DNA from: a virus
DNA: 64,000 nt
Virus record (IMG/VR): IMGVR_UViG_3300018080_000118
Span: 71,947-135,946 of that record
Direction: 5' to 3' (one strand)
Shown: positions 14,698 through 42,725 of the stretch, one piece after another
Layout: each line of letters starts with the position of its first letter
Numbering within the stretch: the first letter of the stretch is position 1
Position numbers and translations under genes: made by a program
The notes under the pieces: generated by a model
Databases searched by the model: none
Told to the model about the DNA's origin: nothing
Seen by the model: only the letters and a program-made list of their open reading frames with translations

Positions 14698-16389
14698 TTA
14701 TTTGCACTCCAGCTTGTGCTTCTTGCACAGCTCCACGGACCAGTCACGGATGGCCTTCAGACGATCGAAGCCCGAGATCCCAGGGTTGTTCTCGTTGATG
14801 TCTTTGATCTTCGTCGCCAGGTCAGCCTGGGTGATGTGGCCCTCGCTCTTGAGAAGGGCAAGGTTGGCCTTGGAGGCTTCGCGGACATCCGCCTCGGTCT
14901 CCTCTTCCTCCTCTTCCTCCTCCGACTCCAGCAGGTCGTCGGCGAGCCCTTCTTCTTCGGACTCCTCTTCCTCGGACTCTTCCTCGGCTTCCTCTTCGGA
15001 CTCCTCCTCAGATTCCTCCTCGGATTCCTCCTCCTTCTTCTTCTTCTTGGAGGTCTTCTTCTTGGAAGCCTTTTTCTTCTTGGGGGCGACGAGCTCCTTG
15101 GCCTCCTCGTTGCTCAGGCCGTAGGTCTCCGGGTCGGTGAGCAGCATCATGAGCACCTTCTTGCGGCTCATGCGTGCGGTGACCTTGAAGCCCATGAGGT
15201 CTGCCATCTTCTTCAGCTCGTCGTCGTCCAGAGCGAGGAGCTCCTCGGTGGTGAGCTTCTCGACGGCCGGCGCTGCCTCCGGCACGCTGTCGAAGAAGCG
15301 GCCCGAGGTCTTGGGGATGAGCGCCTTGTCGACCTCGACGGGTGTCTCGCGGACCTGCCCCTCCTCGACCTTCATGATCTTGGCGGCGCGTGTCTTGGTC
15401 GTGGCGAGAACCATGACCTTCTTGTATGCCTTGAAGGCCGCGAAGACGGACGAGACGAGACGCTTGTCGGCCAACTTGCGAAGCTCCGCAGGGAGCTCCT
15501 TCAGGGCCTCTGCGTCGGACACCACGAGGACTGGCACGATGCTCTTGGGCAGGAAGCCTGCGAGCATGTTGAGGGCCGCGTCTGCCGACAGGAAAGACGG
15601 CTTGGCGTCCTTCGAGTGGTTGGCGGTGAACTCCTGGAGCGCCTTCTCGAAGAGCTGGCTCGCCGAGTAGTCCCCGTAGATGGGGTGCTCCCGGAGGATA
15701 CCCAGACACGACTCGATGATCTCCTGAGCCGCACCGGTCTCGGGCTTGAGGACGAAGTTCTTGGTCTTCTGGCCGCTCTTTCCGGCTTCGATGCCGAGCG
15801 CCTTGTTGACCGCCTCCTTCATCTTGGCCCGGTTCTTGTACTCCTTGCCTGGCACGGACTGGGCAATGAGTTTCTGGAGCTTCTTGCCGCTGATCGCCCC
15901 TTCCTTGAAGCCCCGGTAGATGATGTGCACGTGGCTCGGGGTGATCTTCTTGAACATCTTGGTCTCGATGCCCATCTCGACGAAATACTCCACGAGGCGC
16001 AGAGAATTCGCCACGGTGCCGGGATCGATGTTCAGATGCTCGTTGCAGAAGTCCGCGAAGTTCGCACAGTTGTGCTTGAGGTGAACCTCCTCCTGCTTCA
16101 TCTTCGCGAGGATGACGGCCTTGTGCTTGTCAGCGTCGTCGCTCGCGTCGATCTTGGTGGCCAGCATACGCTGCTGCGCCTTCAGCGTGTTCGGGATCTC
16201 GTACCCGAGCTTGCTCAGGTCGGTGGTCATGAGCTCGCCCGCTGCTGCGGCGGTCCCGACCTCGGCCTTCTTCTCGACCTTCTTCTTGGCCGCCTTCTTC
16301 TTTCCGGCCTTCTTGGCTTTCTTCGCCGGGGCCTTCTTCTTGGAGGAAGCCTTCTTCACGACCTTCTTCTTTGCCTTCTTCTTTGCCAT
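14698..16389 (-). CDS. Large putative DNA-binding protein with histone-H1-like N-terminus and acidic tract
   Basis: MAKKKAKKKVVKKASSKKKAPAKK; NFADFCNEHLNIDPGTVANSLRL HTH-like segment; poly-E C-terminal region. Confidence 0.7.
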   Translation of the reverse strand: MAKKKAKKKVVKKASSKKKAPAKKAKKAGKKKAAKKKVEKKAEVGTAAAAGELMTTDLSKLGYEIPNTLKAQQRMLATKIDASDDADKHKAVILAKMKQEEVHLKHNCANFADFCNEHLNIDPGTVANSLRLVEYFVEMGIETKMFKKITPSHVHIIYRGFKEGAISGKKLQKLIAQSVPGKEYKNRAKMKEAVNKALGIEAGKSGQKTKNFVLKPETGAAQEIIESCLGILREHPIYGDYSASQLFEKALQEFTANHSKDAKPSFLSADAALNMLAGFLPKSIVPVLVVSDAEALKELPAELRKLADKRLVSSVFAAFKAYKKVMVLATTKTRAAKIMKVEEGQVRETPVEVDKALIPKTSGRFFDSVPEAAPAVEKLTTEELLALDDDELKKMADLMGFKVTARMSRKKVLMMLLTDPETYGLSNEEAKELVAPKKKKASKKKTSKKKKKEEESEEESEEESEEEAEEESEEEESEEEGLADDLLESEEEEEEEETEADVREASKANLALLKSEGHITQADLATKIKDINENNPGISGFDRLKAIRDWSVELCKKHKLECK

Positions 16390-24036: not shown

Positions 24037-24542
24037 GTCTCGACCCTCGAACCGTAGACAAGTGTCTCGTAGAGTGGGTGTTCCGAGCATATCATGCTCG
24101 CCGGCTCATCGTCCTCGTACTCCCGCACCTGCGCCACGGTGGTCTTCACCTTGTGTTTCTCGAAGTGCGAGTCTACAGCGTTGATCGCTTGACGCTCGTC
24201 GGAAAAGGCGAGCACCCTGACGTCGCTCTCGTGCTGGAGGATGGCGATGTGTACCTGCAGTCCACGAAGGACATGAGCCTCCATCAGGACGTCGCCTTTC
24301 AGGCCAGCGTGGATGGCGAGCTCCTTGTACCGTTTCTTGGCGTGGTCCTGCACGTTCTCCACAGTGCGCGGAGACATGCGGGGATCTCTGGTGGCGCTCT
24401 TCACGATCTTGCCGAACAGGTCCTCGTAGTCCGGGAGTCTCGGCGAGGTGCCGTGCGCCTTCGATGACTGGATCTGCTGTTTCACGTCAGCGACGGCGTC
24501 GTCGATCTCCTTGCGATAGATGTCCTCTTCACTCAAAGGCAT
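24021..24542 (-). CDS. Hypothetical protein
   Basis: Overlaps polA stop; typical codon usage. Confidence 0.65.
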   Translation of the reverse strand: MPLSEEDIYRKEIDDAVADVKQQIQSSKAHGTSPRLPDYEDLFGKIVKSATRDPRMSPRTVENVQDHAKKRYKELAIHAGLKGDVLMEAHVLRGLQVHIAILQHESDVRVLAFSDERQAINAVDSHFEKHKVKTTVAQVREYEDDEPASMICSEHPLYETLVYGSRVETCTIN

Positions 24543-25662
24543 GTTTGCGTTCCTCCATATATTCCTCTAGGGGGATGATCCTCTTCGCCCTTTGCGGGGT
24601 GAAGGTGGGTAAGTCCGATGACAGGAAGGTCTGCGCCCAGGATTTTTGTTGAGAAGACAGCATGGCAACGGCGCTCTTCTTGACGATGCGGTCTTGCTCC
24701 TCCAGCTTGAGATACTCCTCCCAGTCTGTCGGCTTGAAGAGGCGCGGCTCAGCTGCCGCAGCAAGCTCGTCCAGGCTCTTCTTCTCCGTGACCGTTGGGT
24801 CTTTCACCTTGGCGAAGAAGGTGCCTACCTCGGGCACTGTATCGTCGTCCTTCTGCTTCCAGGTCTTGCAGATCTTGGCGCTGGCCAGGAGCGGCACGTC
24901 CATCACGAAGAAGGGATATTCCATGATGAACTTGACCATCACAGCACACTGCTGGGCGGTCTCTTCGGGAGCCTCGAAGACGTACTCGTCGTGCACCTGG
25001 ATGACAGGCCGGAGTCCCGCGAAATCAGGCTGGTTGAAGATGAACTCCATGAAGGCCCACATCTGTACTTTCATGATGTCAGCGGCGCTTCCCTGGATCT
25101 TGCTGTTGTAGATCTTTCCGGCAGCGACCCTCTCGTAATTATCGAAGTGTCTAAGCCTGCCGCAGACCGTAGAGAATACGCGGGTGCCCTCCCACCAAGA
25201 GCGTCGCAGCTCCTCGTGATAATCGAACACCCCCGCGTAAGTTCGATGAAAGGCGTTGACGTATCTTTCCGCCGCCGCCACATCGTAGATCTTGGTGCCC
25301 GGCTTGTACAGCCGGGCATACCTCGCGAAGTTCTCAGCACGCATGCCGTACATGAGGCCGAAGTTCAAGTTCTTCGCGAGCTTCCTCGGGACGCCCATCC
25401 TTCTGGATGTCTCGGAGTGAGGATCACCCGTGTAGAAGGTGTATCCTTCGAAGTCCTCATGCTCTCTGTACACACCGAGCAGCGTTGGGTCGTGCGTGAT
25501 GTGCGCCCCCAGGCGCAGTTCAAGCTGTGACAAGTCACACACGATGAGTACGTATCCCTCAGGAGCCTCGAAGACGTCCCGAATCTCTGGGCCGAGTTTC
25601 TGGATACGATCGTCGTACTCGCTGGCCTTGTTACGTGAAGGGATATTCTGGAGTTGTGCCAT
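24529..25662 (-). CDS. polA: Family A DNA polymerase, C-terminal (palm/fingers) part
   Basis: QLQNIP, motif A CDLSQLELRLGAH, motif B RKLAKNLNFGLMYG, IQGSAADIMK, motif C QVHDEYVFE. Confidence 0.92.
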   Translation of the reverse strand: MAQLQNIPSRNKASEYDDRIQKLGPEIRDVFEAPEGYVLIVCDLSQLELRLGAHITHDPTLLGVYREHEDFEGYTFYTGDPHSETSRRMGVPRKLAKNLNFGLMYGMRAENFARYARLYKPGTKIYDVAAAERYVNAFHRTYAGVFDYHEELRRSWWEGTRVFSTVCGRLRHFDNYERVAAGKIYNSKIQGSAADIMKVQMWAFMEFIFNQPDFAGLRPVIQVHDEYVFEAPEETAQQCAVMVKFIMEYPFFVMDVPLLASAKICKTWKQKDDDTVPEVGTFFAKVKDPTVTEKKSLDELAAAAEPRLFKPTDWEEYLKLEEQDRIVKKSAVAMLSSQQKSWAQTFLSSDLPTFTPQRAKRIIPLEEYMEERKHAFE

Positions 25663-25981
25663 TGTTTCCACCAGGACGGGGGTTGCGGGCCTGTTTGTCT
25701 CGGCGTAATTTCCTCGCCAGGATCAGCCCCTTGAGAACTTCTATGCCCTCAAGCATAGAGCAGTTATTTTCCTTCATAATTTGGTCTAGGGCGATCTTCG
25801 CTGCCTCGATGACCAGCGTGAATCGAAGCTCGCCCGCGCCTCCGAACCATGGGGATATCTCCGTGACAGGAGAGTTAGGCTCCTTCTTCGAGCAGAGGAT
25901 AGCAAAGGAGGTTAAATGGCCTCCGTAGTTTTGGTGTATCTCTCGGATCACTTGGCCAAGCTCTATCTGCACTTCATCCAT
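25631..25981 (-). CDS. Unknown 116-aa ORF inserted between the two polA halves
   Basis: AGGAG SD from motif copy 3; visibly more AT-rich than the flanking pol sequence. Confidence 0.6.
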   Translation of the reverse strand: MDEVQIELGQVIREIHQNYGGHLTSFAILCSKKEPNSPVTEISPWFGGAGELRFTLVIEAAKIALDQIMKENNCSMLEGIEVLKGLILARKLRRDKQARNPRPGGNNGTTPEYPFT

Positions 25982-26005: not shown

Positions 26006-27382
26006 CTATCCAGTAGAGCTCGACCAGCGCCCTGTCCTGGTTCCTGTCGAGTTGAAGGTTACGTGCACCTTGGACTTTTTGTTTGGGTCGTTCCTCACCT
26101 GCTCCAACAGGCCGATGATAAAGTTCTTGTAGATGATCTGCACAGAACGATAGTCGAGGATCGCCTGTGCAATGGGATGCTCGATGCGCTGCAGCACCTC
26201 TGTCTTGGTTGAGTAGGCCCATGGCTCGTGGGCGATGCCCGCGACCTTGCTGCGCTTCGTACCCTCCGGCGGTGTCACTCCGAGATCACGATAGATCACC
26301 TCGGGGAGATCCTTGTTGGACCGTACGTTGAACTCGCGCTTTGCTATGGCGTGGATGTTGGCTTCGAACTCTTCTAGCAGCGGCTCACTACGTTCTCTCA
26401 GACCGTCGAGCTTGCCCTCGTTCACGTAAGCCCCGTGCGCCGTCATCTGCAGGGAGCCCAGATGGTTCGACTCCTCGATCATCAACCATGTCCGCAGCTT
26501 GGCCTTGTCGATCCAGCGCATCAGTTTGAGGTAGAGCCTCCAGCACTGAATCGCATCGTCCAGAGCGTACTTCTTGAAGAGCTGGTACGCCAGATGGTCG
26601 TTCTCTTGCATCTTGAGTTCGAGGACTATCGTCTTTTTTTGTACGATGTCGTGAAGCTCCTCTAGCACGGCATCGAGCTCGCCCTTTACTTTTTCGGCAT
26701 AGTCGCGCTTCATCTGGTTGAACTCTTTGCGCGGTGTGAGCCCCTTCATGTCGGGCCACAGCTCATCGAGCTCTTTCTTCCCTGCGCGTGTGCGCTCTCG
26801 GGCTTCCTTCTTCAGGAGACGTTCCTTCTCACGAGCTTCCTTGTGCAGCCCCTTTATCTGTTCGCTGAGAACAAGATTGGCCTGGTAGAACTCGGAGTCC
26901 ACAGTGGCCTCCCTAAAGGAGACCATGCGGTGCTTGAAGTGAAGCATGGCCTGACCTTTCAGGCCGAGGTCATCCTCCTCGTTGTACATCCAGGCAAGGA
27001 GCCGCGTATCGGCTATGCGTGCCTGGACCTCGCGGATATCGATACACCCGCTCCAGTGAGCAACGAGGAGATCGTAGTTGTGGTAATGGGCTACGGCTGC
27101 AAGATCTGACTGCTTGAGCAGACCGCGCAGGAAGGCCGAAGTGGTTTTGTTCCACTCCAACACGAGGGCCTTAAAGGGACGATGCTTTCCTGTGGCTAGA
27201 GAGAGCAGGACCGGCCGAGCAACCATGGCGTTAGTTGTCGGCCGGTCCCGTTCATCAACACACTCGAAGTCGAAGGCAAAGCCTCCTACTTGCTTGGCCA
27301 CGTTCCAGAATCGGCGGAGTTGCTCAGTCGTCCCAGGGGTTCCCCTCTTCTTCGCTCTCTTCGCCTTCTTCCTCTTCTTCAT
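26006..27382 (-). CDS. polA: Family A DNA polymerase, N-terminal (3'-5' exonuclease/thumb) part
   Basis: ExoI FAFDFEC, ExoII HYHNYDL, ExoIII YALDDA, FNVRSNKDL; ends HVTFNSTGTRTGRWSSSTG-stop. Confidence 0.9.
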   Translation of the reverse strand: MKKRKKAKRAKKRGTPGTTEQLRRFWNVAKQVGGFAFDFECVDERDRPTTNAMVARPVLLSLATGKHRPFKALVLEWNKTTSAFLRGLLKQSDLAAVAHYHNYDLLVAHWSGCIDIREVQARIADTRLLAWMYNEEDDLGLKGQAMLHFKHRMVSFREATVDSEFYQANLVLSEQIKGLHKEAREKERLLKKEARERTRAGKKELDELWPDMKGLTPRKEFNQMKRDYAEKVKGELDAVLEELHDIVQKKTIVLELKMQENDHLAYQLFKKYALDDAIQCWRLYLKLMRWIDKAKLRTWLMIEESNHLGSLQMTAHGAYVNEGKLDGLRERSEPLLEEFEANIHAIAKREFNVRSNKDLPEVIYRDLGVTPPEGTKRSKVAGIAHEPWAYSTKTEVLQRIEHPIAQAILDYRSVQIIYKNFIIGLLEQVRNDPNKKSKVHVTFNSTGTRTGRWSSSTG

Positions 27383-33505: not shown

Positions 33506-34525
33506 TATTTTTATGCGTGTGACCCTTCCCTTGAAGGCAGGATCGTCCAATAGGTCGCCACTGCTTTCGTCCTCGTACTCCTTGAGGATGCGTGGTAGGA
33601 AGGACGCGAGAGTTGTGATGCTGATCATCCACCCCTCCTCCCTCCCTCGGCTCTTGAAGAACTTCGACTGCAGCTCCGACCAGTTGTCAGGCAACCACTG
33701 GCAAAGGAGCTTGTACTGCTCCGGAGCCTTCATGCCTTGGCGCGACAGCATACCGCGAACACGAGTAAGGGCGGTAAGGGCTGCATGCCTATGGGGTGGC
33801 GATACCTCGATGCTGTGCGAGTTCATCGCACTCTTGAAGCGGGAGAACCACTTTGACCCATCCCACTTCGTCACAGACCTCGGCACCGTCTCTTTGTGGG
33901 CCGCCGAGAAGTCTGGGGGTTTGGCTTTCTTGCCACGAGGAATCGAGGGCTGATCCAGGCGACGCTTTGCTGCGTCCTTCGCCTTCTGCTCCTGGGCCTC
34001 CTCGTGGGCCAACGCTTTCTGGATTGCTGGGTCTTCTTCCAGTAGATCCATTAGGTCCATTCCAGAATCCTGCCCTATGTCTGTTTCTTTTTTGTCTTCT
34101 TCTTCTTTGTCCGCCACTGACGGCGGTATCGGCCCGCCACTGGTGGCGGAATCGTCCCGCCATATTTGGCGGTCCGGTCCGCCAGATTCGGCGGGGCAGG
34201 AATCAAGATCTAGTGGGTGGGACTCGAAGGGTGTGTCACATGAGGTGTACAGGTCAGGTATGTGGGCGAAGACAGTGACGCCTGATGTGCCCATTCTCTG
34301 GCGGATCTCGATCAGGCCGAATTTCTTGAGTTCTGCGATGTACCGCTCAACCGTCCTCAGCCCCATGCCCATCTCCTCGGCCAGCCGTTCCTGCCCAACC
34401 AGGCAGTAGTCCTTGTCCAGGCATCTGGACTTGACGAAGGTGTAGACGACCTTGGCTCCGAGGGATATCCGCGTATCGTAGAGCAGCGCGTGGGGTATCG
34501 GAACGAAGGCGTACTCAATTCCCAT
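33503..34525 (-). CDS. Phage replication initiator-like winged-HTH protein
   Basis: IPHALLYDTRISLGAKVVY...QERLAEEMGMGLRTVERYIAELKKFGLI, followed by a low-complexity linker. Confidence 0.75.
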   Translation of the reverse strand: MGIEYAFVPIPHALLYDTRISLGAKVVYTFVKSRCLDKDYCLVGQERLAEEMGMGLRTVERYIAELKKFGLIEIRQRMGTSGVTVFAHIPDLYTSCDTPFESHPLDLDSCPAESGGPDRQIWRDDSATSGGPIPPSVADKEEEDKKETDIGQDSGMDLMDLLEEDPAIQKALAHEEAQEQKAKDAAKRRLDQPSIPRGKKAKPPDFSAAHKETVPRSVTKWDGSKWFSRFKSAMNSHSIEVSPPHRHAALTALTRVRGMLSRQGMKAPEQYKLLCQWLPDNWSELQSKFFKSRGREEGWMISITTLASFLPRILKEYEDESSGDLLDDPAFKGRVTRIKI

Positions 34526-34820
34526 TCGCCCCCCTTTCCGCTGCCACGAGTTTCGCGTGTTCCTCTTCCGTGTCCGCTTCGAGGATCAGCTCTTCCTTGA
34601 TCAGGTCCTCCATCCACCACTCACGGATACCGTTGGCGATGAATCTGTGGCCGTGGACCTCACGAAAGATGCGCGCCCAGGTACGGGCCGGGTCGAGATC
34701 GCCGCGAGAGGCAAAGAGGGGGATGACCTGGAGGAGCTGCTCCATGGCTACCAACTCTTTGCCGTCGAAGTCGAACTCGATACGGAATCCGTTCCCTCGC
34801 CGCAGGAAGTCAACTTTCAT
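34515..34820 (-). CDS. Hypothetical protein
   Basis: GAGGT SD; overlaps both neighbours. Confidence 0.6.
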   Translation of the reverse strand: MKVDFLRRGNGFRIEFDFDGKELVAMEQLLQVIPLFASRGDLDPARTWARIFREVHGHRFIANGIREWWMEDLIKEELILEADTEEEHAKLVAAERGANGN

Positions 34821-35271
34821 GGTACCTCTTTACTGGTTTGCCCAGAAGTTCCGCGAGCAGATCGACATCAGCCGGATCGCCCGGGAGGTCAAGACTCATG
34901 GAGCCCGCCTCCACGAGCCGAATGAGGCCGGGCAGGATCGCGATCTTGCCTGCCGACTCCAGTAGCCCCATCTCGCGCTCCGTCTCTCCGACAGCGTGCG
35001 AATGTTGGTCGTGCATAGAGAAGAATCTGAAGTTCCCCTCCACCCGGACGTATTTGTACATCTCGCCGACTTGTAGATCATCGTAACTGAAGAGTCCGAT
35101 GAGGCGGTTGGTATCCAGGGCGTGGTCAATGAGGGTGTCAAGGAAGTTGATCAGCCCATCTGCATGATGGGAGTCGCGCATTGTCACTGGCAGCGGATGA
35201 AGGGTTTCAAGAAGCCAGTTTCTCTGCGCGCGAAGCAGATCCCAATCCACTTTCGACAACGGTCCCGACAT
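34810..35271 (-). CDS. Hypothetical protein
   Basis: AGGAGG SD before ATG 35271; VDWDLLRAQRNWLL...GLINFLDTLID. Confidence 0.65.
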   Translation of the reverse strand: MSGPLSKVDWDLLRAQRNWLLETLHPLPVTMRDSHHADGLINFLDTLIDHALDTNRLIGLFSYDDLQVGEMYKYVRVEGNFRFFSMHDQHSHAVGETEREMGLLESAGKIAILPGLIRLVEAGSMSLDLPGDPADVDLLAELLGKPVKRYHES

Positions 35272-35292
35272 ACGACGCCTCCTTTTCGAGGG

Positions 35293-35337
35293 AAAAAAGG
35301 CCAAAGGCTTTTATACCACGAGAGCCTTTGGCGTCAA
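35293..35337 (-). promoter_or_regulatory. Overlapping terminator hairpin and sigma70-like promoter
   Basis: GCCAAAGGCT/AGCCTTTGGC 10-bp inverted repeat followed by T6; TTGACG-16 nt-TATAAA with TG extension inside the same sequence. Confidence 0.6.
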
Positions 35338-35357
35338 GAAGATTTTACTAGTTTTCT

Positions 35358-36056
35358 TTATTTCTTTACACGGGGTAGCTGGACAGAAAACCACTGGTTG
35401 TAGAAGGTGGCGTGGCCTAACGCTATATGTAGGTACACCTCTCCTTCGAAAATTCTCAGAATATCTCGGACGGTCTCTGTCAGCAGAGTCACTCTCCGCC
35501 TATTGGGGGCGCTGTCCGTCTCCGGCCCGTAGTCTCCCTGCTCCCCAACGATGTAGTATTGGCTGTTGGTCCTGATGTCTTTCAGCGCGTGAGGTATCGG
35601 TTCGCGTAGCTGATCTATGTGGAAGAACGGGTCGTCGTTTCGTTCCTCCATCAGTGCGACCATCTCGCTGTACCTCTCTGGGTCCTCGTCATCGTGATGC
35701 AGTATGTTGATGCGGACGCAGTCCCTGCGGAACACTACACGCACTCCGTGCACACCCCGCAGCTTCGTCGGCCTACAGCCCAAGTAGTCGTGGCCTCCCA
35801 CGGAGATCATGTCTGCGTAGGCGTTGGAGCTGAACAGTACGCGCTTGTTCGGCGAGATCTCGCTGAGCGTAGCGTCTTCAAAGGGGGGCTTCGGTTTGTG
35901 GTGGACCAGCAGCGCTTCGAAGAAGTTGAGGGACTGGTCAGCAGCTTTCTCCACCTCTCTGGTGTTGCCGCTCGATGTCCGGTGCTGCCCATAGGCAACC
36001 AGCGCCTCTTTCACCTTCGCTCGAATTTGGACCGAGGCTTCTTCGTACGGTGTCAC
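35358..36056 (-). CDS. Hypothetical protein
   Basis: AAGGAG SD before GTG 36056. Confidence 0.65.
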   Translation of the reverse strand: MTPYEEASVQIRAKVKEALVAYGQHRTSSGNTREVEKAADQSLNFFEALLVHHKPKPPFEDATLSEISPNKRVLFSSNAYADMISVGGHDYLGCRPTKLRGVHGVRVVFRRDCVRINILHHDDEDPERYSEMVALMEERNDDPFFHIDQLREPIPHALKDIRTNSQYYIVGEQGDYGPETDSAPNRRRVTLLTETVRDILRIFEGEVYLHIALGHATFYNQWFSVQLPRVKK

Positions 36057-36074
36057 GCCGTTTCTCCTTTGTCT

Positions 36075-36116
36075 AAAAGAAAAGGAGACCCCCGCGCAAA
36101 ATGCGGGGGCCTCCTT
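36075..36116 (-). terminator. Rho-independent terminator closing the RT-ubiquitin operon
   Basis: AAGGAGGCCCCCGC-ATTTTGC-GCGGGGGTCTCCTT followed by TTCTTTT. Confidence 0.8.
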
Positions 36117-36136
36117 GATCACTCCGGGAGTTGTCA
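36116..36136 (-). repeat. 21-bp quasi-palindromic motif, copy 5
   Basis: TGACAACTCCCGGAGTGATCA between the Ubl stop and the terminator. Confidence 0.85.
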
Positions 36137-36140
36137 CGGT

Positions 36141-36461
36141 CTAGCCGCGATCCTTGGGGGCGGGCTGGAACATGACTTCGTCGCCCGGCTTGGTCACGTA
36201 GGAGTCGTTGACCTTGTCGCCGTTGACGAGCGGGATCATGTTCTCGCGCAGGTCGAACTTGTCCCACAGGGCGCTCTTGATCTGGCCGATGGTCTTGCCC
36301 GGGGGGAAGTTCGAGGTGGGGTAGTCCTTGTAATCCGAGGTGGCGCGGCGTTCCACGCGCACCTGGGCCTGGGGAGCCTCGGCGGTCTCGGCGGCCTCGG
36401 CGCGGCGGGGCTGGTTCACGTTCACGTCGATTTCGATGCGGGCGTCGGGATCACTACTCAT
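36141..36461 (-). CDS. Ubiquitin-like (beta-grasp) protein ending in Gly
   Basis: GKTIGQIKSALWDKFDL...LVNGDKVNDSYVTKPGDEVMFQPAPKDRG-stop; AAGGAG SD; ATGA-coupled to E1. Confidence 0.8.
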   Translation of the reverse strand: MSSDPDARIEIDVNVNQPRRAEAAETAEAPQAQVRVERRATSDYKDYPTSNFPPGKTIGQIKSALWDKFDLRENMIPLVNGDKVNDSYVTKPGDEVMFQPAPKDRG

Positions 36462-37180
36462 GGTTTCTCCTTCCTGGTAAGAGGCTTGCTCCACATAGGC
36501 CGCATACTCGGCCCAGTGGCGTCAAATAGAACTTCGTTGACGGAGGGTGCCGCGTCCGTCCTCCACCTGAGGGACCACCATGCGCAGAGCATAGAGGTGG
36601 CCGCCAGCAGATTTGCAAAGACGAGCTGCGGTTGCGACTGGACGATCTCCATGCAGGACGGATCATCTGGGAACTTCCCCGGCATCGAGGTCATTTCAGG
36701 ATGCACCTCGTCGATTGTCGGGGTCAGATTCTTTCCGCCCTGTCGCATGAAGATCTGGCACTGGCCGTCGTGGTACTCGTTGCCACCAATGAACAGGGCA
36801 ACATCTCGCAGCTTCAGCGCCTCTTGCTGAACAAAGAGCCGACTCGGGTGGTTGTCGACTCCCACGAAGATATCAGCATCAGTCTGCCAGTACCAGCGTT
36901 TCGCTGTCTTGACAGTCTTCGGGCTGAATGCTTCGGGTACGCTATGTAGGCGCACATTTCTTGGTCTCAGCTGTTCTTCCAGCATCTTGACCAGGGCCGA
37001 CGCTTTGCCCATGCCGATGGTGCCTGGGCCGAACTGCCGGGCAGTATTGCTTCTCTCGATCGTGTCTGGATCGACAAAGAAGATTTCGCTCGGAACGTCG
37101 GAGTGTTCTAGGAACCGTACCAGCGGCACGGATAGATGATAGCCTATGCCCCCACAACCGATGACGATGATGTTTTTCAC
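36458..37180 (-). CDS. ThiF/E1-like activating enzyme
   Basis: IIVIGCGGIG, DPDTIERSNTARQ, GKA, VGVDNHPSR, and DPSC...QLVFANLLAA (candidate catalytic Cys). Confidence 0.92.
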   Translation of the reverse strand: MKNIIVIGCGGIGYHLSVPLVRFLEHSDVPSEIFFVDPDTIERSNTARQFGPGTIGMGKASALVKMLEEQLRPRNVRLHSVPEAFSPKTVKTAKRWYWQTDADIFVGVDNHPSRLFVQQEALKLRDVALFIGGNEYHDGQCQIFMRQGGKNLTPTIDEVHPEMTSMPGKFPDDPSCMEIVQSQPQLVFANLLAATSMLCAWWSLRWRTDAAPSVNEVLFDATGPSMRPMWSKPLTRKEKP

Positions 37181-38658
37181 GGAGCCTCCCACACCTTGTC
37201 GGCGGCGTAGGCGAGGTGGTCGATGCAGGTCTCAACCTGGTGATACCCCTTCATGCCGGGCTTGAGTTTCTTGCCGATGCCGAGGAGTCTCGTGAGTAGC
37301 TTGTCGTGCTCCTGCGGAGAGAGGGTCCACGAGATACGCCGCACCATTGTCGAGACCTTGTCCCAGTAGGTGGATATGCCAGAAGCCTCAGCTTGCGTGA
37401 TCTTCAGCATGACACCCTGCAATGTGGGCATCTCTCCAGGGTCAGGGCGAGTGAGCGCGAGCGAGTCGTCCTCGATCAGCTCCATGTTGGTTGGCTTCAC
37501 GAAGTCAGTGAGGTCCGCCTCCCGTATCCTTTCGTAGGTGAGGCTGCGAGGATAGTTGCTGTGGTATCTGCTCCTCGTACTGCCCCGCCGCTCTGACGAG
37601 CTCTTAGCTGCACTCGCCTTTTTCTTTTCCTCGGCTGCGCGTTTCATCATCTCTCGGCGTACCAGCAGCCAGTTGTTGATCTGGCCGTTGAAGGCTTCGT
37701 CTCTGTGCTCAGTGGCAAAGAGATCGGAAATGTTGAGTGGGATGCGGACGTCGCCGTCGCAGAAGGAGAGCACCAAGGACTCCTGGGCCTTGTCGAGGTT
37801 CCCCACAGTCATGTGGAATCCGATGTGAGGAATCTCGTGCTTGTTGTCTGTACCGCTGGAGAAGGCGGCCATTGCCCCGTGACTGTGTATGGTGCCCATG
37901 CAGCGCAGAACTTGTAGCTCGTTGCCGCAAGAACATACCACCTCTTCCCTGGGGTTGACCGTCATGGTGATGCGACACTTGCTACAGAAGTGCGTGCCCA
38001 GCTCGAAGCGCAGGTGTGCGCTACTCTGGCCGAGCGTCGTTGGTAGAAGGAGCAGGACGTCCCGTGGGCGAAGAATATATCGCCGAGAGTCGTTCTCCGA
38101 TTGGGGAACGGGTCGAGGGACTCGGTGCATCACCAGGATGTCCTCGCTCTTGTGATCCCGGTATGCTTCCCTCATGAACCTCACCATCCTGTGCAGGACG
38201 GTCCTGTGGATCAGAGGGTGGCTCCCCAGGAAGATCGCTGGCTGCATCGGCAGGTCCAGCTTCCCCATCTTCCGGCCCACCGTCTCCGGGTTCTTGGTCA
38301 TCGTGTCCAGGACGATGTCCGTCCACTTCTTCAGGAGTGGCGGCATCTCCCAGGCTGACAGTGATGTCGACGTGGTCGGCAGGGAGCTCTGGGGTGACAG
38401 TGATGAGTCCGACGACGGGTCCGTCGAAGTCGAACTCGACTTCGATGTGGCTGGGAGGCCGAGGTTGCTCAGGTCGCTCCTCAGCTCCCTCGTCAGCTTC
38501 TCCTTCAGGTAGTCCCTCAGGATGTTCTGGTTCTTCGAGTCCTTCTTCAGGGGCTTGATCACCGTCAGCTCCTTCAGGTGCGTGACTTTCATCAAACCCT
38601 TCTTCGTCAAGAGAATCCCGTCTGTAGTCGGGATCTCCAGGTGGATCTTGTTGTTCAT
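37177..38658 (-). CDS. JAB/MPN+ metallopeptidase (deubiquitinase-like) with CxxC insertion
   Basis: GTIHSHGAMAAFSSGTDNKHE and FHMTVGNLD; upstream KSEDILV; CSKC...CSC. Confidence 0.85.
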   Translation of the reverse strand: MNNKIHLEIPTTDGILLTKKGLMKVTHLKELTVIKPLKKDSKNQNILRDYLKEKLTRELRSDLSNLGLPATSKSSSTSTDPSSDSSLSPQSSLPTTSTSLSAWEMPPLLKKWTDIVLDTMTKNPETVGRKMGKLDLPMQPAIFLGSHPLIHRTVLHRMVRFMREAYRDHKSEDILVMHRVPRPVPQSENDSRRYILRPRDVLLLLPTTLGQSSAHLRFELGTHFCSKCRITMTVNPREEVVCSCGNELQVLRCMGTIHSHGAMAAFSSGTDNKHEIPHIGFHMTVGNLDKAQESLVLSFCDGDVRIPLNISDLFATEHRDEAFNGQINNWLLVRREMMKRAAEEKKKASAAKSSSERRGSTRSRYHSNYPRSLTYERIREADLTDFVKPTNMELIEDDSLALTRPDPGEMPTLQGVMLKITQAEASGISTYWDKVSTMVRRISWTLSPQEHDKLLTRLLGIGKKLKPGMKGYHQVETCIDHLAYAADKVWEAP

Positions 38659-38968
38659 GATCTGGGCCTCGGTTACAGGTGGGACAAAGGGGTGATTCGG
38701 AACGCCTTCCGTTCCTGTATAGACTTCTCAGGATGACGGCCATGCCGTCCATGCTGCCGTCATCGATGTGGTGGGATGAAGACCTTCCTTCGTCATCCAG
38801 CAGGTCGAGCACCTCCCTGAGCTTGTATCGATCAGGGTCTACAGTATGTCTGTAATGTATGGTGCGCGGATAGGCCGCTTTGAGTCGACGAGCCATCGTT
38901 TTGTAGAAGGTTTGCTCGTCCGGGGTGACCCGTGGGAGTCGCTTGATTGCACGGATCATATCATCCAT
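38021..38968 (-). CDS. Unknown protein overlapping the JAB gene by 638 nt in another frame
   Basis: GGAGG SD and 8-nt overlap with the E2 stop; ordered N-terminus and a codon-biased beta segment HIEVEFDFDGPVVGLITVTPELPADHVDITVSLG. Confidence 0.55.
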   Translation of the reverse strand: MDDMIRAIKRLPRVTPDEQTFYKTMARRLKAAYPRTIHYRHTVDPDRYKLREVLDLLDDEGRSSSHHIDDGSMDGMAVILRSLYRNGRRSESPLCPTCNRGPDHEQQDPPGDPDYRRDSLDEEGFDESHAPEGADGDQAPEEGLEEPEHPEGLPEGEADEGAEERPEQPRPPSHIEVEFDFDGPVVGLITVTPELPADHVDITVSLGDAATPEEVDGHRPGHDDQEPGDGGPEDGEAGPADAASDLPGEPPSDPQDRPAQDGEVHEGSIPGSQERGHPGDAPSPSTRSPIGERLSAIYSSPTGRPAPSTNDARPE

Positions 38969-39629
38969 TAGAGCCTCCTACAGTGTCGCCGAATGCGCCG
39001 GCGTCGCGCCACTCGATTTCGGAGAAGCTCGATTGCCAGTCTTCTTCGTGCCTTTGTGTCCAGGCGGCCCATCTGTCCAGCATGCGCGTGAATTGGCCAT
39101 CAGCGCCTTCCCTGAAGTCGCGGGGCATTGCCTCTTTCGCGTACGAGATGTGATCGGTGTTGTGCCGGGTGCGCTCCACCTGATTCACCACGTGGTCGAT
39201 CCGGAACACGAGGCACTCATCCTGCGAGGCGAACATGACTCCGCTGGCGCAGATATCACCTTGGAGGGTTCTGTTCGGGAACGGAGCCTGGTAGACCCGG
39301 GTCTCCATGGAGGTTGGCAGGTCGAGCATGAAGTGTTGCTTGACCGTCCGGATACCGCCGTTCTTCATGATGACGGTGTAGAGCCGGTGCGGCATAGCTA
39401 CGGTGAAGACCCGATTCGCCTGATTCATTTCGCGGACTTCCGCACGTCGGATGACGGCGATGACAGTCTTATCGCTGTCCTCGGAATAGTAGACGGTGCC
39501 AACCGGGAGCAGCGGTGTTGTGACGCTGTTTCTGGAGATCGCTCTCCGGAAATCTTCAACGGGCACGATGTCGTGCGTGGTCTCTTCGACGAGCATCGCC
39601 ACGCCATCTGTTATTACGATCTTCTGCAT
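38961..39629 (-). CDS. Prokaryotic E2-like conjugating enzyme (Prok-E2_D/PRTRC protein B-like)
   Basis: LLPVGT...MPHRLY...LPTSMETRVYQAPFPNRTLQGDICASG fits the Y-x-APF-x-N...G-x-IC E2 signature. Confidence 0.75.
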   Translation of the reverse strand: MQKIVITDGVAMLVEETTHDIVPVEDFRRAISRNSVTTPLLPVGTVYYSEDSDKTVIAVIRRAEVREMNQANRVFTVAMPHRLYTVIMKNGGIRTVKQHFMLDLPTSMETRVYQAPFPNRTLQGDICASGVMFASQDECLVFRIDHVVNQVERTRHNTDHISYAKEAMPRDFREGADGQFTRMLDRWAAWTQRHEEDWQSSFSEIEWRDAGAFGDTVGGSNG

Positions 39630-40762
39630 AGTGTCCTCAGATGTTTGAGCTCACCCCTCCACGTCTCGCCTTTCTCGTCCTTGCCTCCGAAGAAGTAGGG
39701 CTTGAGTTGCGGCGACACAGCGCAGATGGCGGCGATCTTGCCTTGGACTTTCTTGAATCCGCGCCGGGTGATCTTCCTGACATTTCCTTCTTTGTCGCGG
39801 AAGTGGCCGGGCGGTACCTTTCCCTCTTCGATGTCCATGATCATGCGATGGATGCGGCCTCGCCAGTACCGGCGCTGCCGCCGTCTGGCATTGACCGTGT
39901 CTTGTCCCACGACCACGCCGCAGACTTCGAGGCGCTGCGGGGCCTTGAACTTCTTGGTCTTCTTCTCTTTGATCTTGAAGTCGCAGTCCTCGACGATGAC
40001 GCGGATAGGGTGCAGGATGTTGTGCAGCGCCCACACACGCCTGTCTCGATTCCTGCGGCTGACGTTCATTCCCCGTTGCAGTCTTCGCCGAACCTCTTTG
40101 GGCGGCAGGTCGTAGTTCGAGCTGATGGTGATGTCATCGGCGTACCGTGTGTACGCGATGGGATCCATGCGCGGCCGCCTGAATGGGGCGCACCCGTCCA
40201 TCGGCTCTCGTCTCCACGCCTCGCATAGGCGCGCGATACGGTAGTCCAGTTGCCGGGCAGCGATGTTGGACAACATCGGGCTGGATGGCGCACCCTGGGG
40301 TAACCCGCCGTCGAGGAAGCAGGCGCGCATGACCAAGGCAAACAGCCAGTCCGGGATGTCGACGTCGTAGCGCAGCGCCTCGCCTACGACTTTCGGGGTG
40401 CACGAAGGGAAGAAGTCCTTGAGGTCGATCTTCAGCAGGTACTTATGGCCCATGTGCGGCTGTGCGTTCGATCGCAGGTTTCGTTCACGCCCGGGCTTTT
40501 TCCGGATGAACGCGTGCGCGTACTTCGATGGCCCGTACAGACGGCCGAGCTCGCGCGCGATGAGCGTCTGCAGCTTCTTGAGTCCTGGCAGCGGTTCTTG
40601 GATCTTCCGCATGCCCCCCGTGCGCTTGGGGATGAGGACCGTCGGGTGGTAGTCTTTCTCGGTTGCCACCCAATCCGGGTCTTCCAGGAGGTCCTGGAAC
40701 CCCGCATCACCGTCCGCCAGTTGCAGCGGAAGAGTGAGCTGTTCAAGCTCCTCTATGAACAT
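39614..40762 (-). CDS. Retron-type reverse transcriptase
   Basis: IPKRTGGMRKIQEP, AHAF, region X NAQPH, KIDLKDFFPS, LPQGAPSSPMLSN, YTRYADDITIS, region Y EVCGVVV (VTG variant). Confidence 0.92.
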   Translation of the reverse strand: MFIEELEQLTLPLQLADGDAGFQDLLEDPDWVATEKDYHPTVLIPKRTGGMRKIQEPLPGLKKLQTLIARELGRLYGPSKYAHAFIRKKPGRERNLRSNAQPHMGHKYLLKIDLKDFFPSCTPKVVGEALRYDVDIPDWLFALVMRACFLDGGLPQGAPSSPMLSNIAARQLDYRIARLCEAWRREPMDGCAPFRRPRMDPIAYTRYADDITISSNYDLPPKEVRRRLQRGMNVSRRNRDRRVWALHNILHPIRVIVEDCDFKIKEKKTKKFKAPQRLEVCGVVVGQDTVNARRRQRRYWRGRIHRMIMDIEEGKVPPGHFRDKEGNVRKITRRGFKKVQGKIAAICAVSPQLKPYFFGGKDEKGETWRGELKHLRTLCRRS

Positions 40763-40801
40763 AGTTCATTCTCCACAATAGGGTCTGGGTAAAAATCTCA
40801 G

Positions 40802-40973
40802 TAAAAGGAGGACGGGGTGGATTTCGCTAGGTCCACCCCGTCCAAAGGATCACGACGTTTCTGGAGGACTACTTTCCTTTGCCACCGGATTTCACGCCTC
40901 CCCACAGGCGATCCAGGTCCCAGCTGGATGCTGCGGTCTTCTTGGTACCCTTCTTCACGAGACACTCCTTATA
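40802..40973 (-). ncRNA. Candidate retron-like msr-msd RNA
   Basis: Flanking TATAAGGAG/CTCCTTTTA (8 of 9 pairs), two short hairpins (40911-40929, 40895-40910), a 7-bp pairing and a perfect 12-bp stem (40810-40843), ending 39 nt upstream of the RT. Confidence 0.4.
40869..40958 (-). CDS. Possible 29-aa peptide MKKGTKKTAASSWDLDRLWGGVKSGGKGK
   Basis: AAGGAG SD 6 nt before GTG; lies inside the candidate ncRNA. Confidence 0.35.
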   Translation of the reverse strand: MKKGTKKTAASSWDLDRLWGGVKSGGKGK

Positions 40974-41079
40974 TGAGATGAGTCGGGAAAACAGCAGGCA
41001 CCTGAATCTGAGTGGTTGAGGCTGAGGTTGAGTCTTGGGTCGGCGGCTGAATCTATATGTTTGTAGGAGGAACACCGGA

Positions 41080-41127
41080 GTAAAAGTCACCGGCTTGAAG
41101 GCCAGTGGCCCAACGGGGCCGGTGACT
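41080..41127 (-). terminator. Hairpin followed by TTTTAC; possible terminator or RNA structure
   Basis: AGTCACCGGC/GCCGGTGACT 10-bp stem. Confidence 0.45.
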
Positions 41128-41187
41128 CGGGGTCTCCTGAAGAGTTGAGGGTTGGGTCAGGTAGCTGCGAGGGATGGTGTGGACGAC

Positions 41188-41520
41188 CTACTCGTCGTCG
41201 TCGTCGTCGCCCATGAGCTTGGCCTGGGCCTTGTCGATGGCGCGCTGCTTGCGCGCGAGCGTCCTGCGCTCCGCCTTGATTTCCCGGGTCAATTCCTCCA
41301 CGGCCTCGTCTTCCGCCATGTAGCGGTCGACGGTGCTGTTGAAGTCCTCGTCCTCGGTGTCATCTTCGGCGAGCAGGTAGCTCGCGCCGTAGACAGCGCC
41401 GCCACCGACCGTGAGGCCGATGCCGATGCCTGCGGTGATCTCGGCGGCCGACTTGTTGGTCTTCTCCACAGCCAGACCACTCGGCAGCTTTCCCTTTCCT
41501 GCGTCTCTGAATTTCTTCAT
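41188..41520 (-). CDS. Small protein with Gly-rich hydrophobic segment and coiled coil
   Basis: AGGAGG SD; ITAGIGIGLTVGGGAVYGASYLL; acidic end. Confidence 0.7.
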   Translation of the reverse strand: MKKFRDAGKGKLPSGLAVEKTNKSAAEITAGIGIGLTVGGGAVYGASYLLAEDDTEDEDFNSTVDRYMAEDEAVEELTREIKAERRTLARKQRAIDKAQAKLMGDDDDDE

Positions 41521-41697
41521 TGGATTCCTCCTGTAAAACGTCGGTTGATCATGAGCTCCACAAGCGCCCCCAGTGGGCGCGTGTTAGCGATAAGCTCACG
41601 TTCATTATTCTTTTGACAGAAATAGGCTGTTTTTTGGACCCTTTCGTTCTATAATTCTAGATGCCTAGTTTTCATATCCTTTTTGGAGACGTCTCTC

Positions 41698-42411
41698 ATG
41701 GCTGAACCTGGCTCCATCGGCAAGAAGCCACAGGGGTCCTTCGTCAACACAAGTCAGATGGTCGACGACATCAAGCGCAAGAAGGAGCTTGAGTCGCTCG
41801 AACAGATGAAGGATCGGAAGGAAGAAGAGGCTCTGGAGGAAGAGGAGAAGAAGCAGAACGCGGAGATCGACAAGCTCCTGCCCGAGCGTGTCGAGTCTGC
41901 CTTCGGCGAGCTTCCCTACGCAACCTTCAAGGAGCTCTATCAGGACGTATTCGATGCAGTGGCCAACAAGGACCACTGGTCTCTCGGATACGTCTCCCAT
42001 GCGATGGACTTGTACGACGGTGTGCCCGTCCGAGTCCGTACGCTGAGGAAACGCGAGGCCGACGTGCTGCGCGGGGTGGCTCCCAAGGGCGCGGCCTATC
42101 CGGGCGCGGACATCGACCAGTTCAATGCGGAACGGGCGGAGTACGAGACTGTCCGCTTGCTGGTCTGTCTGCAGCAGTTCGGCGAGATCCAGTTCGAGGA
42201 TAGCGTGAAGCTGTCGCTCGCCAACTTCTCTGAGTGGCGTGAGTCCAAGGACGCCAAGGCCCGTGCCGAGCAAGTCGACGACCTGCCTGACGAGGTGATC
42301 TCTCTCCTCGGAGCCGTCATCAACGATACGATGGTCGCGTATCGCTGTGCGATGACGGAAAACTTAAAAAACCAATTAGCACCTCTCTCGCGTACTACCG
42401 CCTCCGATTAG
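41698..42411 (+). CDS. Tail assembly chaperone (lambda gpG-like)
   Basis: Upstream of tape measure gene; ends with a slippery site. Confidence 0.65.
   Translation: MAEPGSIGKKPQGSFVNTSQMVDDIKRKKELESLEQMKDRKEEEALEEEEKKQNAEIDKLLPERVESAFGELPYATFKELYQDVFDAVANKDHWSLGYVSHAMDLYDGVPVRVRTLRKREADVLRGVAPKGAAYPGADIDQFNAERAEYETVRLLVCLQQFGEIQFEDSVKLSLANFSEWRESKDAKARAEQVDDLPDEVISLLGAVINDTMVAYRCAMTENLKNQLAPLSRTTASD
42366..42372 (+). other. -1 programmed frameshift heptamer A AAA AAC
   Basis: The -1 frame is open (KPISTSLAYYRLRLV) and continues into ORF 42411-42725. Confidence 0.8.
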
Positions 42412-42725
42412 TGCTGAGAGGGGTGGATCTCACCCAACACGGACACCTCGAACAGATCGATCTCCTTGAGGCGGAGAAGCGTGATCTGCTGATGAGGTTC
42501 ATGGACCAGGTGGTTAGCATCATGGCCTCGGCTGGCTCCTCGCCCGAAGCCATGGAGTTGATTAAGCGGCTCAAGGAGGTCTACTTCATAGGGTACGCCG
42601 AGAAGCGAAAGATGGAGAGTCAGAAGGCGGCCCAGGAGCTCCTCGAACTTAGCCGCAAGGTCTTCCACGTCGCTCCAGGCGTTCGCGGTGGCCCCTACCG
42701 ACTCACCGTTCAGGACGGACAATGA
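42411..42725 (+). CDS. Tail chaperone frameshift extension (gpT-like)
   Basis: In -1 frame relative to the upstream gene; no good SD of its own. Confidence 0.65.
   Translation: MLRGVDLTQHGHLEQIDLLEAEKRDLLMRFMDQVVSIMASAGSSPEAMELIKRLKEVYFIGYAEKRKMESQKAAQELLELSRKVFHVAPGVRGGPYRLTVQDGQ

Follow-up and report, generated by a model that had tools for sequence, protein, structure and literature searches.

A retron-type reverse transcriptase encoded with a ubiquitin-like conjugation cassette in a large phage: a candidate new retron type

Could reverse-transcribed DNA act as the switch, or as the substrate, of a protein-tagging cascade? This question is raised by an operon on the minus strand (36082 to 41187) of a 64,000-nucleotide (nt) stretch of viral DNA, referred to here as the window. 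The window comprises bases 71947 to 135946 of the IMG/VR virus record IMGVR_UViG_3300018080_000118, which is 135,946 bp long and ~70% complete according to CheckV. In reading order, the operon consists of a leader, a gene for a retron-type reverse transcriptase (RT), a putative E2 gene, an open reading frame termed ORF X, genes for a JAB metallopeptidase, an E1-like enzyme, and a ubiquitin-like protein (Ubl), and a terminator. We favor the reading that it represents a new retron type, with a Bil/PRTRC-like Ubl-conjugation effector and probably a noncoding RNA (ncRNA) in the leader, used in mobile-element/host conflict; we put its probability at roughly one in two. Retrons and bacterial ubiquitin-like systems are recent additions to immunity that have so far been studied apart.

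Operon layout and predicted gene products

The features of the operon are as follows.

40763 to 41187, minus strand: leader, non-coding, 425 nt, upstream of the RT gene; candidate ncRNA site
39614 to 40762, minus strand: retron-type RT, 382 amino acids; NAQPH at 99-103, YADD at 207-210, VCG at 280-282
38961 to 39629, minus strand: putative E2-like ubiquitin-conjugating enzyme, 222 amino acids; FPN at 117-119, GDIC at 124-127 (FPNRTLQGDIC)
38659 to 38968, minus strand: ORF X, ~100 codons, fast-evolving; frame open to 38021
37177 to 38658, minus strand: JAB/JAMM metallopeptidase, 493 amino acids; E172, H258-S-H260, S268, D271
36458 to 37192, minus strand: ThiF-family E1-like adenylating enzyme; GCGGIG at 12-17, invariant C180
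36141 to 36461, minus strand: Ubl, 106 amino acids from the ATG at 36461; ends KDRG at 36144
36082 to 36116, minus strand: intrinsic terminator, 14-bp stem (10 GC pairs) and 7-nt loop, followed by TTCTTTT

The six ORFs run from 40762 to 36141 without an intergenic gap, with neighboring genes overlapping throughout. The E2 gene overlaps the RT gene by 16 nt, and ORF X, starting at 38968, overlaps the E2 gene by 8 nt (ATGGATGA). Translation of E1 likely begins at the GTG at 37180, which overlaps the JAB stop codon (GTGA); an alternative GTG lies at 37192. Ubl starts at the ATG at 36461, which shares letters with the E1 stop codon (ATGA) and has AAGGAG 6 nt before it. Judged from this gene layout, the locus is best read as a single transcription unit of a large phage. 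A first-pass annotation, made by a model from the letters alone, had described these coding features with their motifs and overlaps, as well as the terminator and the lack of gaps; the coordinates, motif positions, and 14-bp stem bear this description out.

The RT matches Pfam RVT_1 (1.2e-16) and NCBIfam retron_St85 (1e-46), the latter at 159.5 bits and thus short of the 235-bit cut-off. Of the PADLOC RT models, 47 match (2e-50 to 1e-28), with RT-TIR_XII the best (2.2e-50) and RT-Protease_XI, II-A, and III-A likewise scoring high. The motifs NAQPH (NAxPH), YADD, and VCG, the last being the xCG counterpart of retron VTG, are invariant or near-invariant in 24 members of the RT family. On these matches and motifs, the protein is predicted to be a retron-type RT, as initially called, and fits no named type. 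A single-protein scan of viral contigs with the RT returned no match, and no close RT relative was found among the cultured phages of INPHARED.

The genes downstream are predicted to encode a complete Ubl-conjugation kit with intact catalytic motifs, as had also been proposed at first pass. Its clearest member is E1, which matches Pfam ThiF at 5e-14 (52.5 bits, over the 28.1 cut-off) and PRTRC_ThiF at 1.3e-11 (under the cut-off). A profile of five cassette E1s matches the NEDD8 E1 at 3e-11, as well as MccB, UBA5, and the SUMO E1 (to ~1e-10), and the nucleotide-binding glycines and Cys180 are invariant across the aligned cassette E1s. The JAB protein matches Prok-JAB (7.1e-4) and PRTRC_A (6.5e-5), both under the cut-off. 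Its H258, S259, H260, S268, and D271, which form the HxH..S..D motif, are invariant in five aligned cassettes, and it carries a CxxC...CxC insert (residues 224 to 245) and a long C-terminal extension.

The window Ubl itself has no family match among Pfam or NCBIfam profiles. Its homolog on a low-GC 178-kb viral contig (L006) matches Pfam ThiS at 30.9 bits (cut-off, 22.5), and a profile of eight Ubl homologs matches di-ubiquitin at ~1e-5. In the structure model of the window Ubl, residues 61 to 110 form a beta-grasp domain (predicted local distance difference test [pLDDT], 80 to 91), and the N terminus is disordered. The best 50 Foldseek rows for this model are all ubiquitin-like folds, seven of them at E ≤ 0.001. 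The window Ubl ends in a free C-terminal Gly; its relatives end in KG plus zero to three residues or are tandem di- or tri-Ubls, which suggests a processing job for the JAB peptidase.

The E2 assignment is putative. The match to Prok-E2_D is under the cut-off (0.0091; 2e-4 for the L006 homolog). P42, N119, and C127 are invariant across 17 homologs, and the eight-residue spacing from Asn119 to Cys127, the putative catalytic residue, gives a PN..8..C motif; this spacing is that of the E2 HPN...C motif. The AlphaFold model (pLDDT, 84.2) retrieved E2/UBC or UEV (E2 variant) chains in the best 27 rows of a wide VIA-align search (Z of 4.4 to 6.2) and scored Z of 3.8 to 3.9 against the bacterial BubCD-BubB and CdnG-E2 complexes. 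All these values lie under 8, the caution level of the fold search, and the E2 call therefore leans on fold, motif, and context jointly. Foldseek found nothing at E ≤ 0.001 in the PDB, and the E2 profile found no solved-structure relative by sequence. The top Foldseek rows, rotavirus VP8* at TM scores of 0.15 to 0.2, were dismissed as chance.

Between the E2 and JAB genes, the first-pass annotation had placed an ORF without an assigned function. Its start and its 8-nt overlap stand, but only ~100 codons of the open frame appear to be a real gene. The frame first meets a stop at 38021, having run 638 nt through the JAB gene. In the region of overlap, reading in the JAB frame gives the GC content by codon position that is typical of coding sequence (0.52/0.41/0.83), and reading in the X frame gives atypical values (0.83/0.52/0.42), which marks the X frame beyond 38658 as a probable shadow frame. 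The ORF X sequence is identical in two other runs, making an assembly error unlikely, and the product may carry a long acidic tail. A gene also lies between E2 and JAB in L002, L004, L006, L167, L168, L170, and L221 to L225; the intervening proteins align poorly (9 to 23% identity). Of all inspected cassettes with a recognized E2, only L060 and L018 have no small gene at this position. A third frame near ORF X ends in TAA ~15 nt before the JAB ATG. We do not claim a programmed frameshift here, as no slippery site was seen and homology is too weak. At another position, after the RT, the low-GC cassettes of L006 (8849 to 9454) and L060 (9318 to 9974) encode a ~200-amino-acid protein with an HExxH-like motif (HEVGH and HEIGH, respectively) and no Pfam match; a SpoVG-like identity considered for a gene after the RT in L060 found no Pfam support and was set aside.

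Recurrence and phylogeny of the RT-cassette pairing

Three scans examined whether the pairing recurs, as the first-pass annotation had proposed to ask of gene neighborhoods, and in each it did. A scan of viral contigs by E1 alignment gave 54 loci (including the near-duplicates L164/L165, L181/L182, L199/L200, and L171/L172), which were screened with profiles from five cassettes. A JAB gene adjoins E1 in 32 of the 54, and 13 of these 32 have a same-strand retron-type RT within 10 kb. In L167, L180, L184, L196, and L199, 1.5 to 4 kb of other genes separate the RT from the cassette.

Starting from the RT, with alignment scans that used generic retron motifs, 160 loci with RT relatives were found among the matches listed (80 viral and 80 metagenome, with many metagenome loci too short for a verdict). 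At least 37 of the 160 have E1, JAB, or E2 beside the RT (34/80 viral; 3/80 metagenome). Most of these (26/37), on viral contigs of 20 to 117 kb, represent a second architecture: a small Ubl-like ORF, a ~500-amino-acid protein, JAB (HGHSH), ThiF, an ncRNA, and the RT, as inspected in three loci. The closest E2 and the closest RT homologs lie on contigs of matching lengths (2794, 3030, 2003, and 17119 nt).

The third scan, of GTDB genome contigs, returned 18 loci, seven of them with JAB and E1. Five of the seven show the window order RT-E2-X-JAB-E1...Ubl, on contigs of metagenome-assembled genomes (MAGs) binned as Victivallis, Paceibacterota, Omnitrophota, Nitrospiraceae, and Planctomycetota. 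In L225 (3757 to 5989), ParB and a DnaN-like clamp come before the RT-led cassette; in L221 (3315 to 5035), a PD-(D/E)XK nuclease and DUF932 do. Because of these neighbors, the gene content suggests that carriers include plasmid-like elements or elements resembling integrative and conjugative elements (ICEs) besides phages. In total, about sixty RT/cassette loci occur in several architectures, so the pairing is not a one-off, and at least four gene orders are seen: RT-E2..., ...E1-RT, ...E1-ncRNA-RT, and ...E1-genes-RT. By gene neighborhood, we consider the linkage real and recurrent.

Was the RT joined to the cassette once or several times? An RT tree of 280 sequences (duplicates removed; 120 without known context) places the linked RTs in three positions, i.e., at least three lineages. 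Basal clade A holds L183 and the second architecture. Clade B contains the window RT together with L164/L169, L167/L180, and a group of seven; best BLAST matches assign the MAG-locus RTs to this clade as well. The third position is that of the L018/L008 RT pair, nested inside the classical retrons. The comparison with retron clades called for at first pass thus yields several lineages, one of them within the classical retrons. A tree of 63 E1s splits those linked to an RT into at least five groups, with RT-less E1s interspersed, and the L183 E1 groups with the L018/L008 E1s while the corresponding RTs fall in different RT clades. The interleaving and this discordance suggest that RT modules were joined or swapped repeatedly, a pattern not accounted for by chance adjacency. 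Across 32 loci, distances between RTs correlate with those between E1s (Mantel r of 0.916; reached in 0 of 2000 permutations).

Retron ncRNA in related loci and the leader of the window

Clade A carries a 290- to 370-nt element upstream of the RT, closed by a 7- to 13-bp a2/a1 helix; the 3' arm of this helix stops immediately short of the RT ribosome-binding site. The arms pair with compensatory changes (CTGCAAT/ATTGCAG, CCTGTAAC/GTTACAGG, and TATCTGTAAC/GTTACAGATA). Right after the 5' arm (a2) stands a G, which is the position of the retron branching G, followed by two hairpins and a conserved AGTAACAAC. Pairing in the second hairpin extends to 85.6% of cells; both sides vary in six of its eight pairs, and none of 500 shuffles reached the covariation score. 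The clade-A covariance model, R1, gave 17 matches, all in clade-A loci and with up to four copies per locus. There were none in the window, L002, L004, L006, L060, L018, L167, L181 to L199, or the RT-less loci searched. By these RNA criteria, clade A qualifies as a real retron. Clade-A phage contigs (L074, L065, L078, L067, L038, and L037, the last with positions 16120 to 16192) have two to four copies of the 5' module of the ncRNA but only one RT gene, and some copies lie downstream of that gene.

Of the loci arranged like the window operon, L222 bears, between the RT and E2, an element of 380 nt (z of -5.27) with a terminal helix of ~14 bp followed by a G, and L221 and L225 have 10-bp helices followed by a G beside the RT.

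The leader of the window had been described as structured. Two strong local hairpins are indeed present, one terminator-like (41127 to 41085) and one of 12 bp followed by a T-run (40843 to 40810), but the leader as a whole is weakly structured. Folded over its 425 nt, it gives a z of -2.34, a level that none of 100 shuffles reached; over the 358 nt enclosed by the top long-range pairing, z is -1.12, and 14 of 100 shuffles are as good. The top-ranking pairings of this kind involve 13 nt with two mismatches (span 354) or 12 nt with one mismatch (spans 175 and 192); they compete among themselves and with the perfect 12-bp local hairpin. Against Rfam, 34500 to 42500 gave only sub-threshold chance matches, at the terminator, and neither a retron nor any other genuine match; six related loci gave only tRNAs. 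No second copy of the leader was found within the 136-kb record.

The leader nevertheless diverges less than the flanking genes, which points to nucleotide-level constraint. Compared with ~90 to 96% identical relatives from two marine-sediment runs (X4 and X5), it shows 11 differences and one gap in 341 nt, and 8 differences in 213 nt, versus 7.8 to 9.3% divergence of the same relatives in the RT gene, 9.3% in X, and 11.7% in part of JAB. Under the favored reading, an ncRNA is probably encoded in this conserved 425-nt leader. The leader also contains a 29-codon ORF (40869 to 40958, minus strand; MKKGTKK...GGKGK) with a good ribosome-binding site, AAGGAG, 6 nt before its GTG; the 12-bp hairpin and T-run come after this ORF.

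Known systems, alternative readings, and genomic setting

To which known system does the operon belong? Retrons consist of an RT, an msr/msd ncRNA, and an effector, and 13 types are given in the main text of Mestre et al. 2020 (PMC7736814). The window RT resembles them in scoring best against retron RT models, in carrying the motifs of the retron RT group (NAxxH, VTG-type xxG, and YADD, i.e., YxDD), and in having conserved neighbor genes. The same text describes RTs and partners as combining modularly, which the window locus shares, and the ncRNA of sister clade A is closed by a2/a1 with a G at the branch position. A conserved, co-evolving effector beside the RT, another mark of retrons, is matched here by the cassette linkage and the RT/E1 correlation, of which shared ancestry is a possible cause. 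The differences are that the partner is a five-gene Ubl-conjugation cascade, that the RT falls under the NCBIfam retron cut-off, and that the carriers are mostly large, lytic-looking phages. ThiF, ubiquitin, JAB, and PRTRC have no occurrence in the main text of PMC7736814, and as far as that text shows, the window system fits none of the 13 types.

With regard to the cassette, the window has all four activities, Ubl, E2, JAB, and E1, with intact catalytic motifs. This is also the makeup of BilABCD, an anti-phage system reportedly described by Millman in 2022 and by Hor and Chambers in 2024. The low-GC relatives of the window share the gene order Ubl-E2-(X)-JAB-E1 with Bil. The window cassette differs in its extra ORF X, in its RT, and in being carried by phages or mobile elements instead of host defense islands. 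Scanned with PADLOC 2.0.0, a library whose Bil content was not checked, the cassette proteins of the window and four relatives matched only CBASS E1-E2/JAB.

PRTRC cassettes are similar in that the best NCBIfam matches of the window JAB and E1 are PRTRC_A (TIGR03735) and PRTRC_ThiF (TIGR03736), that the window E2 weakly matches Prok-E2_D, and that they travel on mobile elements; the relative L225 has ParB directly upstream. The window proteins nonetheless score far from membership (JAB, 22.6 versus a cut-off of 101.8 bits; E1, 44.3 versus 144.75), and even the relative L018 stays under both cut-offs (100.7 bits for PRTRC_ThiF and 48.4 for PRTRC_A). The ~70% complete record contains a single match to the ParB family PF02195, at 14.3 bits, under the cut-off and ~99 kb away. 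No RT is described for PRTRC in the open literature, which gives annotation-level mentions only, among the matches listed.

Type II CBASS (cyclic oligonucleotide-based antiphage signaling system) shares the E1/E2/JAB chemistry, and the window E1 gives weak matches to Cap2 models. In CBASS, conjugation through Cap2/Cap3 regulates an immune nucleic-acid enzyme, a precedent for control of a polymerase-like enzyme. Cap2 is an E1-E2 fusion, whereas the window has separate E1 and E2 genes and a dedicated Ubl. No CD-NTase or cyclic-nucleotide effector was found among the operon genes or their neighbors, which places the operon outside type II CBASS. From its gene content, the operon is best read as behaving like a retron with a Bil-like cascade attached, and as neither PRTRC nor CBASS.

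The first-pass annotation knew of no such system. In the open-access main texts searched, no description of a retron RT joined to a Ubl cassette was found, and the union appears undescribed. The cassettes by themselves, however, are not rare in large phages, as the RT-less loci below illustrate.

How well does the retron reading withstand the remaining evidence? Several observations weigh against it. The window leader shows no clear retron ncRNA: there is no perfect a1/a2-type helix, no G follows any long-range pairing, R1 gives no match, and the fold reaches z of only -2.34 (425 nt) or -1.12 (358 nt). L002 and L004 have nearly no gap upstream of the RT, and L006 and L167 have no gap beside it. 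In the viral scan, 19 of the 32 JAB+E1 loci have no RT within 10 kb, and RVT_1 is absent from 10 of 10 whole RT-less records, a set that takes in three at least 90% complete as well as the two cultured phages named below. Because most cassettes have no RT, the RT seems dispensable for Ubl conjugation as such. Conversely, the cassette is missing from five clade-B RT loci that have 5 kb or more of flanking sequence, also when thresholds are relaxed. Finally, the co-divergence of RT and E1 could stem from shared phage ancestry alone.

The absence of any RT from whole records identifies the RT as an add-on; in terms of gene content, the Ubl cassette appears to be a stand-alone module of many large phages, with the RT optional. 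Since RT/ncRNA modules seem to have joined this free-standing cassette repeatedly, our reading gives the sensing or regulating role to the RT/ncRNA and makes the Ubl cascade the effector. Under the retron reading, the E1 would adenylate the C-terminal Gly of the Ubl and form a thioester, probably on invariant Cys180, as family membership suggests. It would pass the Ubl to Cys127 of the E2, which would attach it to a target lysine through an isopeptide bond; the JAB protein would trim Ubl precursors and remove conjugates. The RT/ncRNA, a detachable add-on that comparative genomics suggests was joined to the cassette several times, would gate this effector as a sensor or regulator, like RT-msDNA (the reverse-transcribed DNA product) in other retrons, with a protein-tagging cascade in place of a nuclease or NADase. 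The most likely use would be the exclusion of rival phages or the modification of host or rival proteins.

At a little less than even odds, we extend this to a new and widespread retron class, spanning phages, plasmid-like elements, and MAG contigs, in which the RT and its DNA product would either control the Ubl cascade or be modified by it, for instance through attachment of the Ubl to the RT or to the RT-DNA. If true, reverse transcription would for the first time be connected with ubiquitin-like tagging in prokaryotes.

Of the alternatives, the one that survives best, though unlikely, is that the cassette serves the phage life cycle by tagging or cross-linking virion or replication proteins or in host take-over, with the RT supplying a nucleic-acid cofactor or primer and no defense-like role. 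RT-less cassettes are widespread in large phages, beside replication or structural modules, and the genes flanking the window operon are syntenic with those of L002. Two RT-less carriers are cultured: Bacillus phage vB_BceM_WH1 (L162, LC597490.1, 4719 to 7813), with JAB and a ThiF E1, and Salmonella phage Arash (L163, OQ632216.1, 1519 to 4539), with a gene at the E2 position, JAB, and a ThiF E1. The cassette genes of both are annotated as hypothetical, structural, or ThiF. According to PMC10585845, the Arash E2-position, JAB, and E1 products (Gp248, Gp247, and Gp246) were detected in the particle proteome, which would suit a virion role. The same text gives that proteome as 116 proteins including RNA polymerase and ribonucleotide reductase, however, so detection is weak structural evidence. 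Cassettes beside ParB and DnaN or DUF932 on plasmid- or ICE-like MAG contigs fit a virion role poorly, and the scattered distribution of the cassette over related phages is what accessory genes typically show.

Improbable, in our estimation, is a counter-defense role, in which the phage E1/E2/JAB/Ubl set undoes or jams host Bil or CBASS Cap2/Cap3 and the RT/ncRNA is a decoy or a second anti-defense module. The genes are phage-borne, E1 and some JAB homologs weakly match CBASS Cap2/Cap3 in PADLOC, and a JAB peptidase could reverse host conjugation, given what is known of Cap3 and BilC. A deubiquitinase alone would suffice for this, however, with no need for a full cascade and its own Ubl. Profile searches of the window proteins matched no known anti-defense family, and no literature linking retron RTs to anti-defense was found among the papers listed.

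Least probable is that the RT and cassette are independent accessory modules sharing a variable region, which the first-pass annotation had tied to cassettes usually being RT-less: the RT-less majority (19/32) and the 1.5- to 4-kb gaps would fit, but the start/stop overlaps of the window (including 16 nt between RT and E2), the adjacency kept in several orders and lineages, the near-absence of RT matches beside E1-like genes without a JAB match (one weak match in 22), and repeated independent joining all argue against chance.

Should the retron reading hold, new partners and ncRNAs of retron RTs would be relevant to genome editing with retron RT-DNA. Large phages commonly carry full E1/E2/JAB/Ubl sets, and the two cultured carriers offer laboratory entry points.

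As for the genomic setting, large ORFs on the other side of the operon have no match in Pfam or PHROGs, and no tRNA genes were found. On the low-GC viral contig L006, a tRNA with anticodon CTA (11590 to 11665) is a possible amber suppressor. The operon is surrounded by phage replication genes (primase, DnaB-like helicase, RNase H, UvsX-like recombinase, exonuclease, sigma factor, and ligase), which, with the 136-kb record, agrees with the carriage on a large phage proposed at first pass. Within the window, a family-A DNA polymerase is split into two minus-strand ORFs with a 334-nt gap between them, at 24529 to 25671 and 26006 to 27382, which align to phrog_17 positions 981 to 1285 and 654 to 978, respectively.

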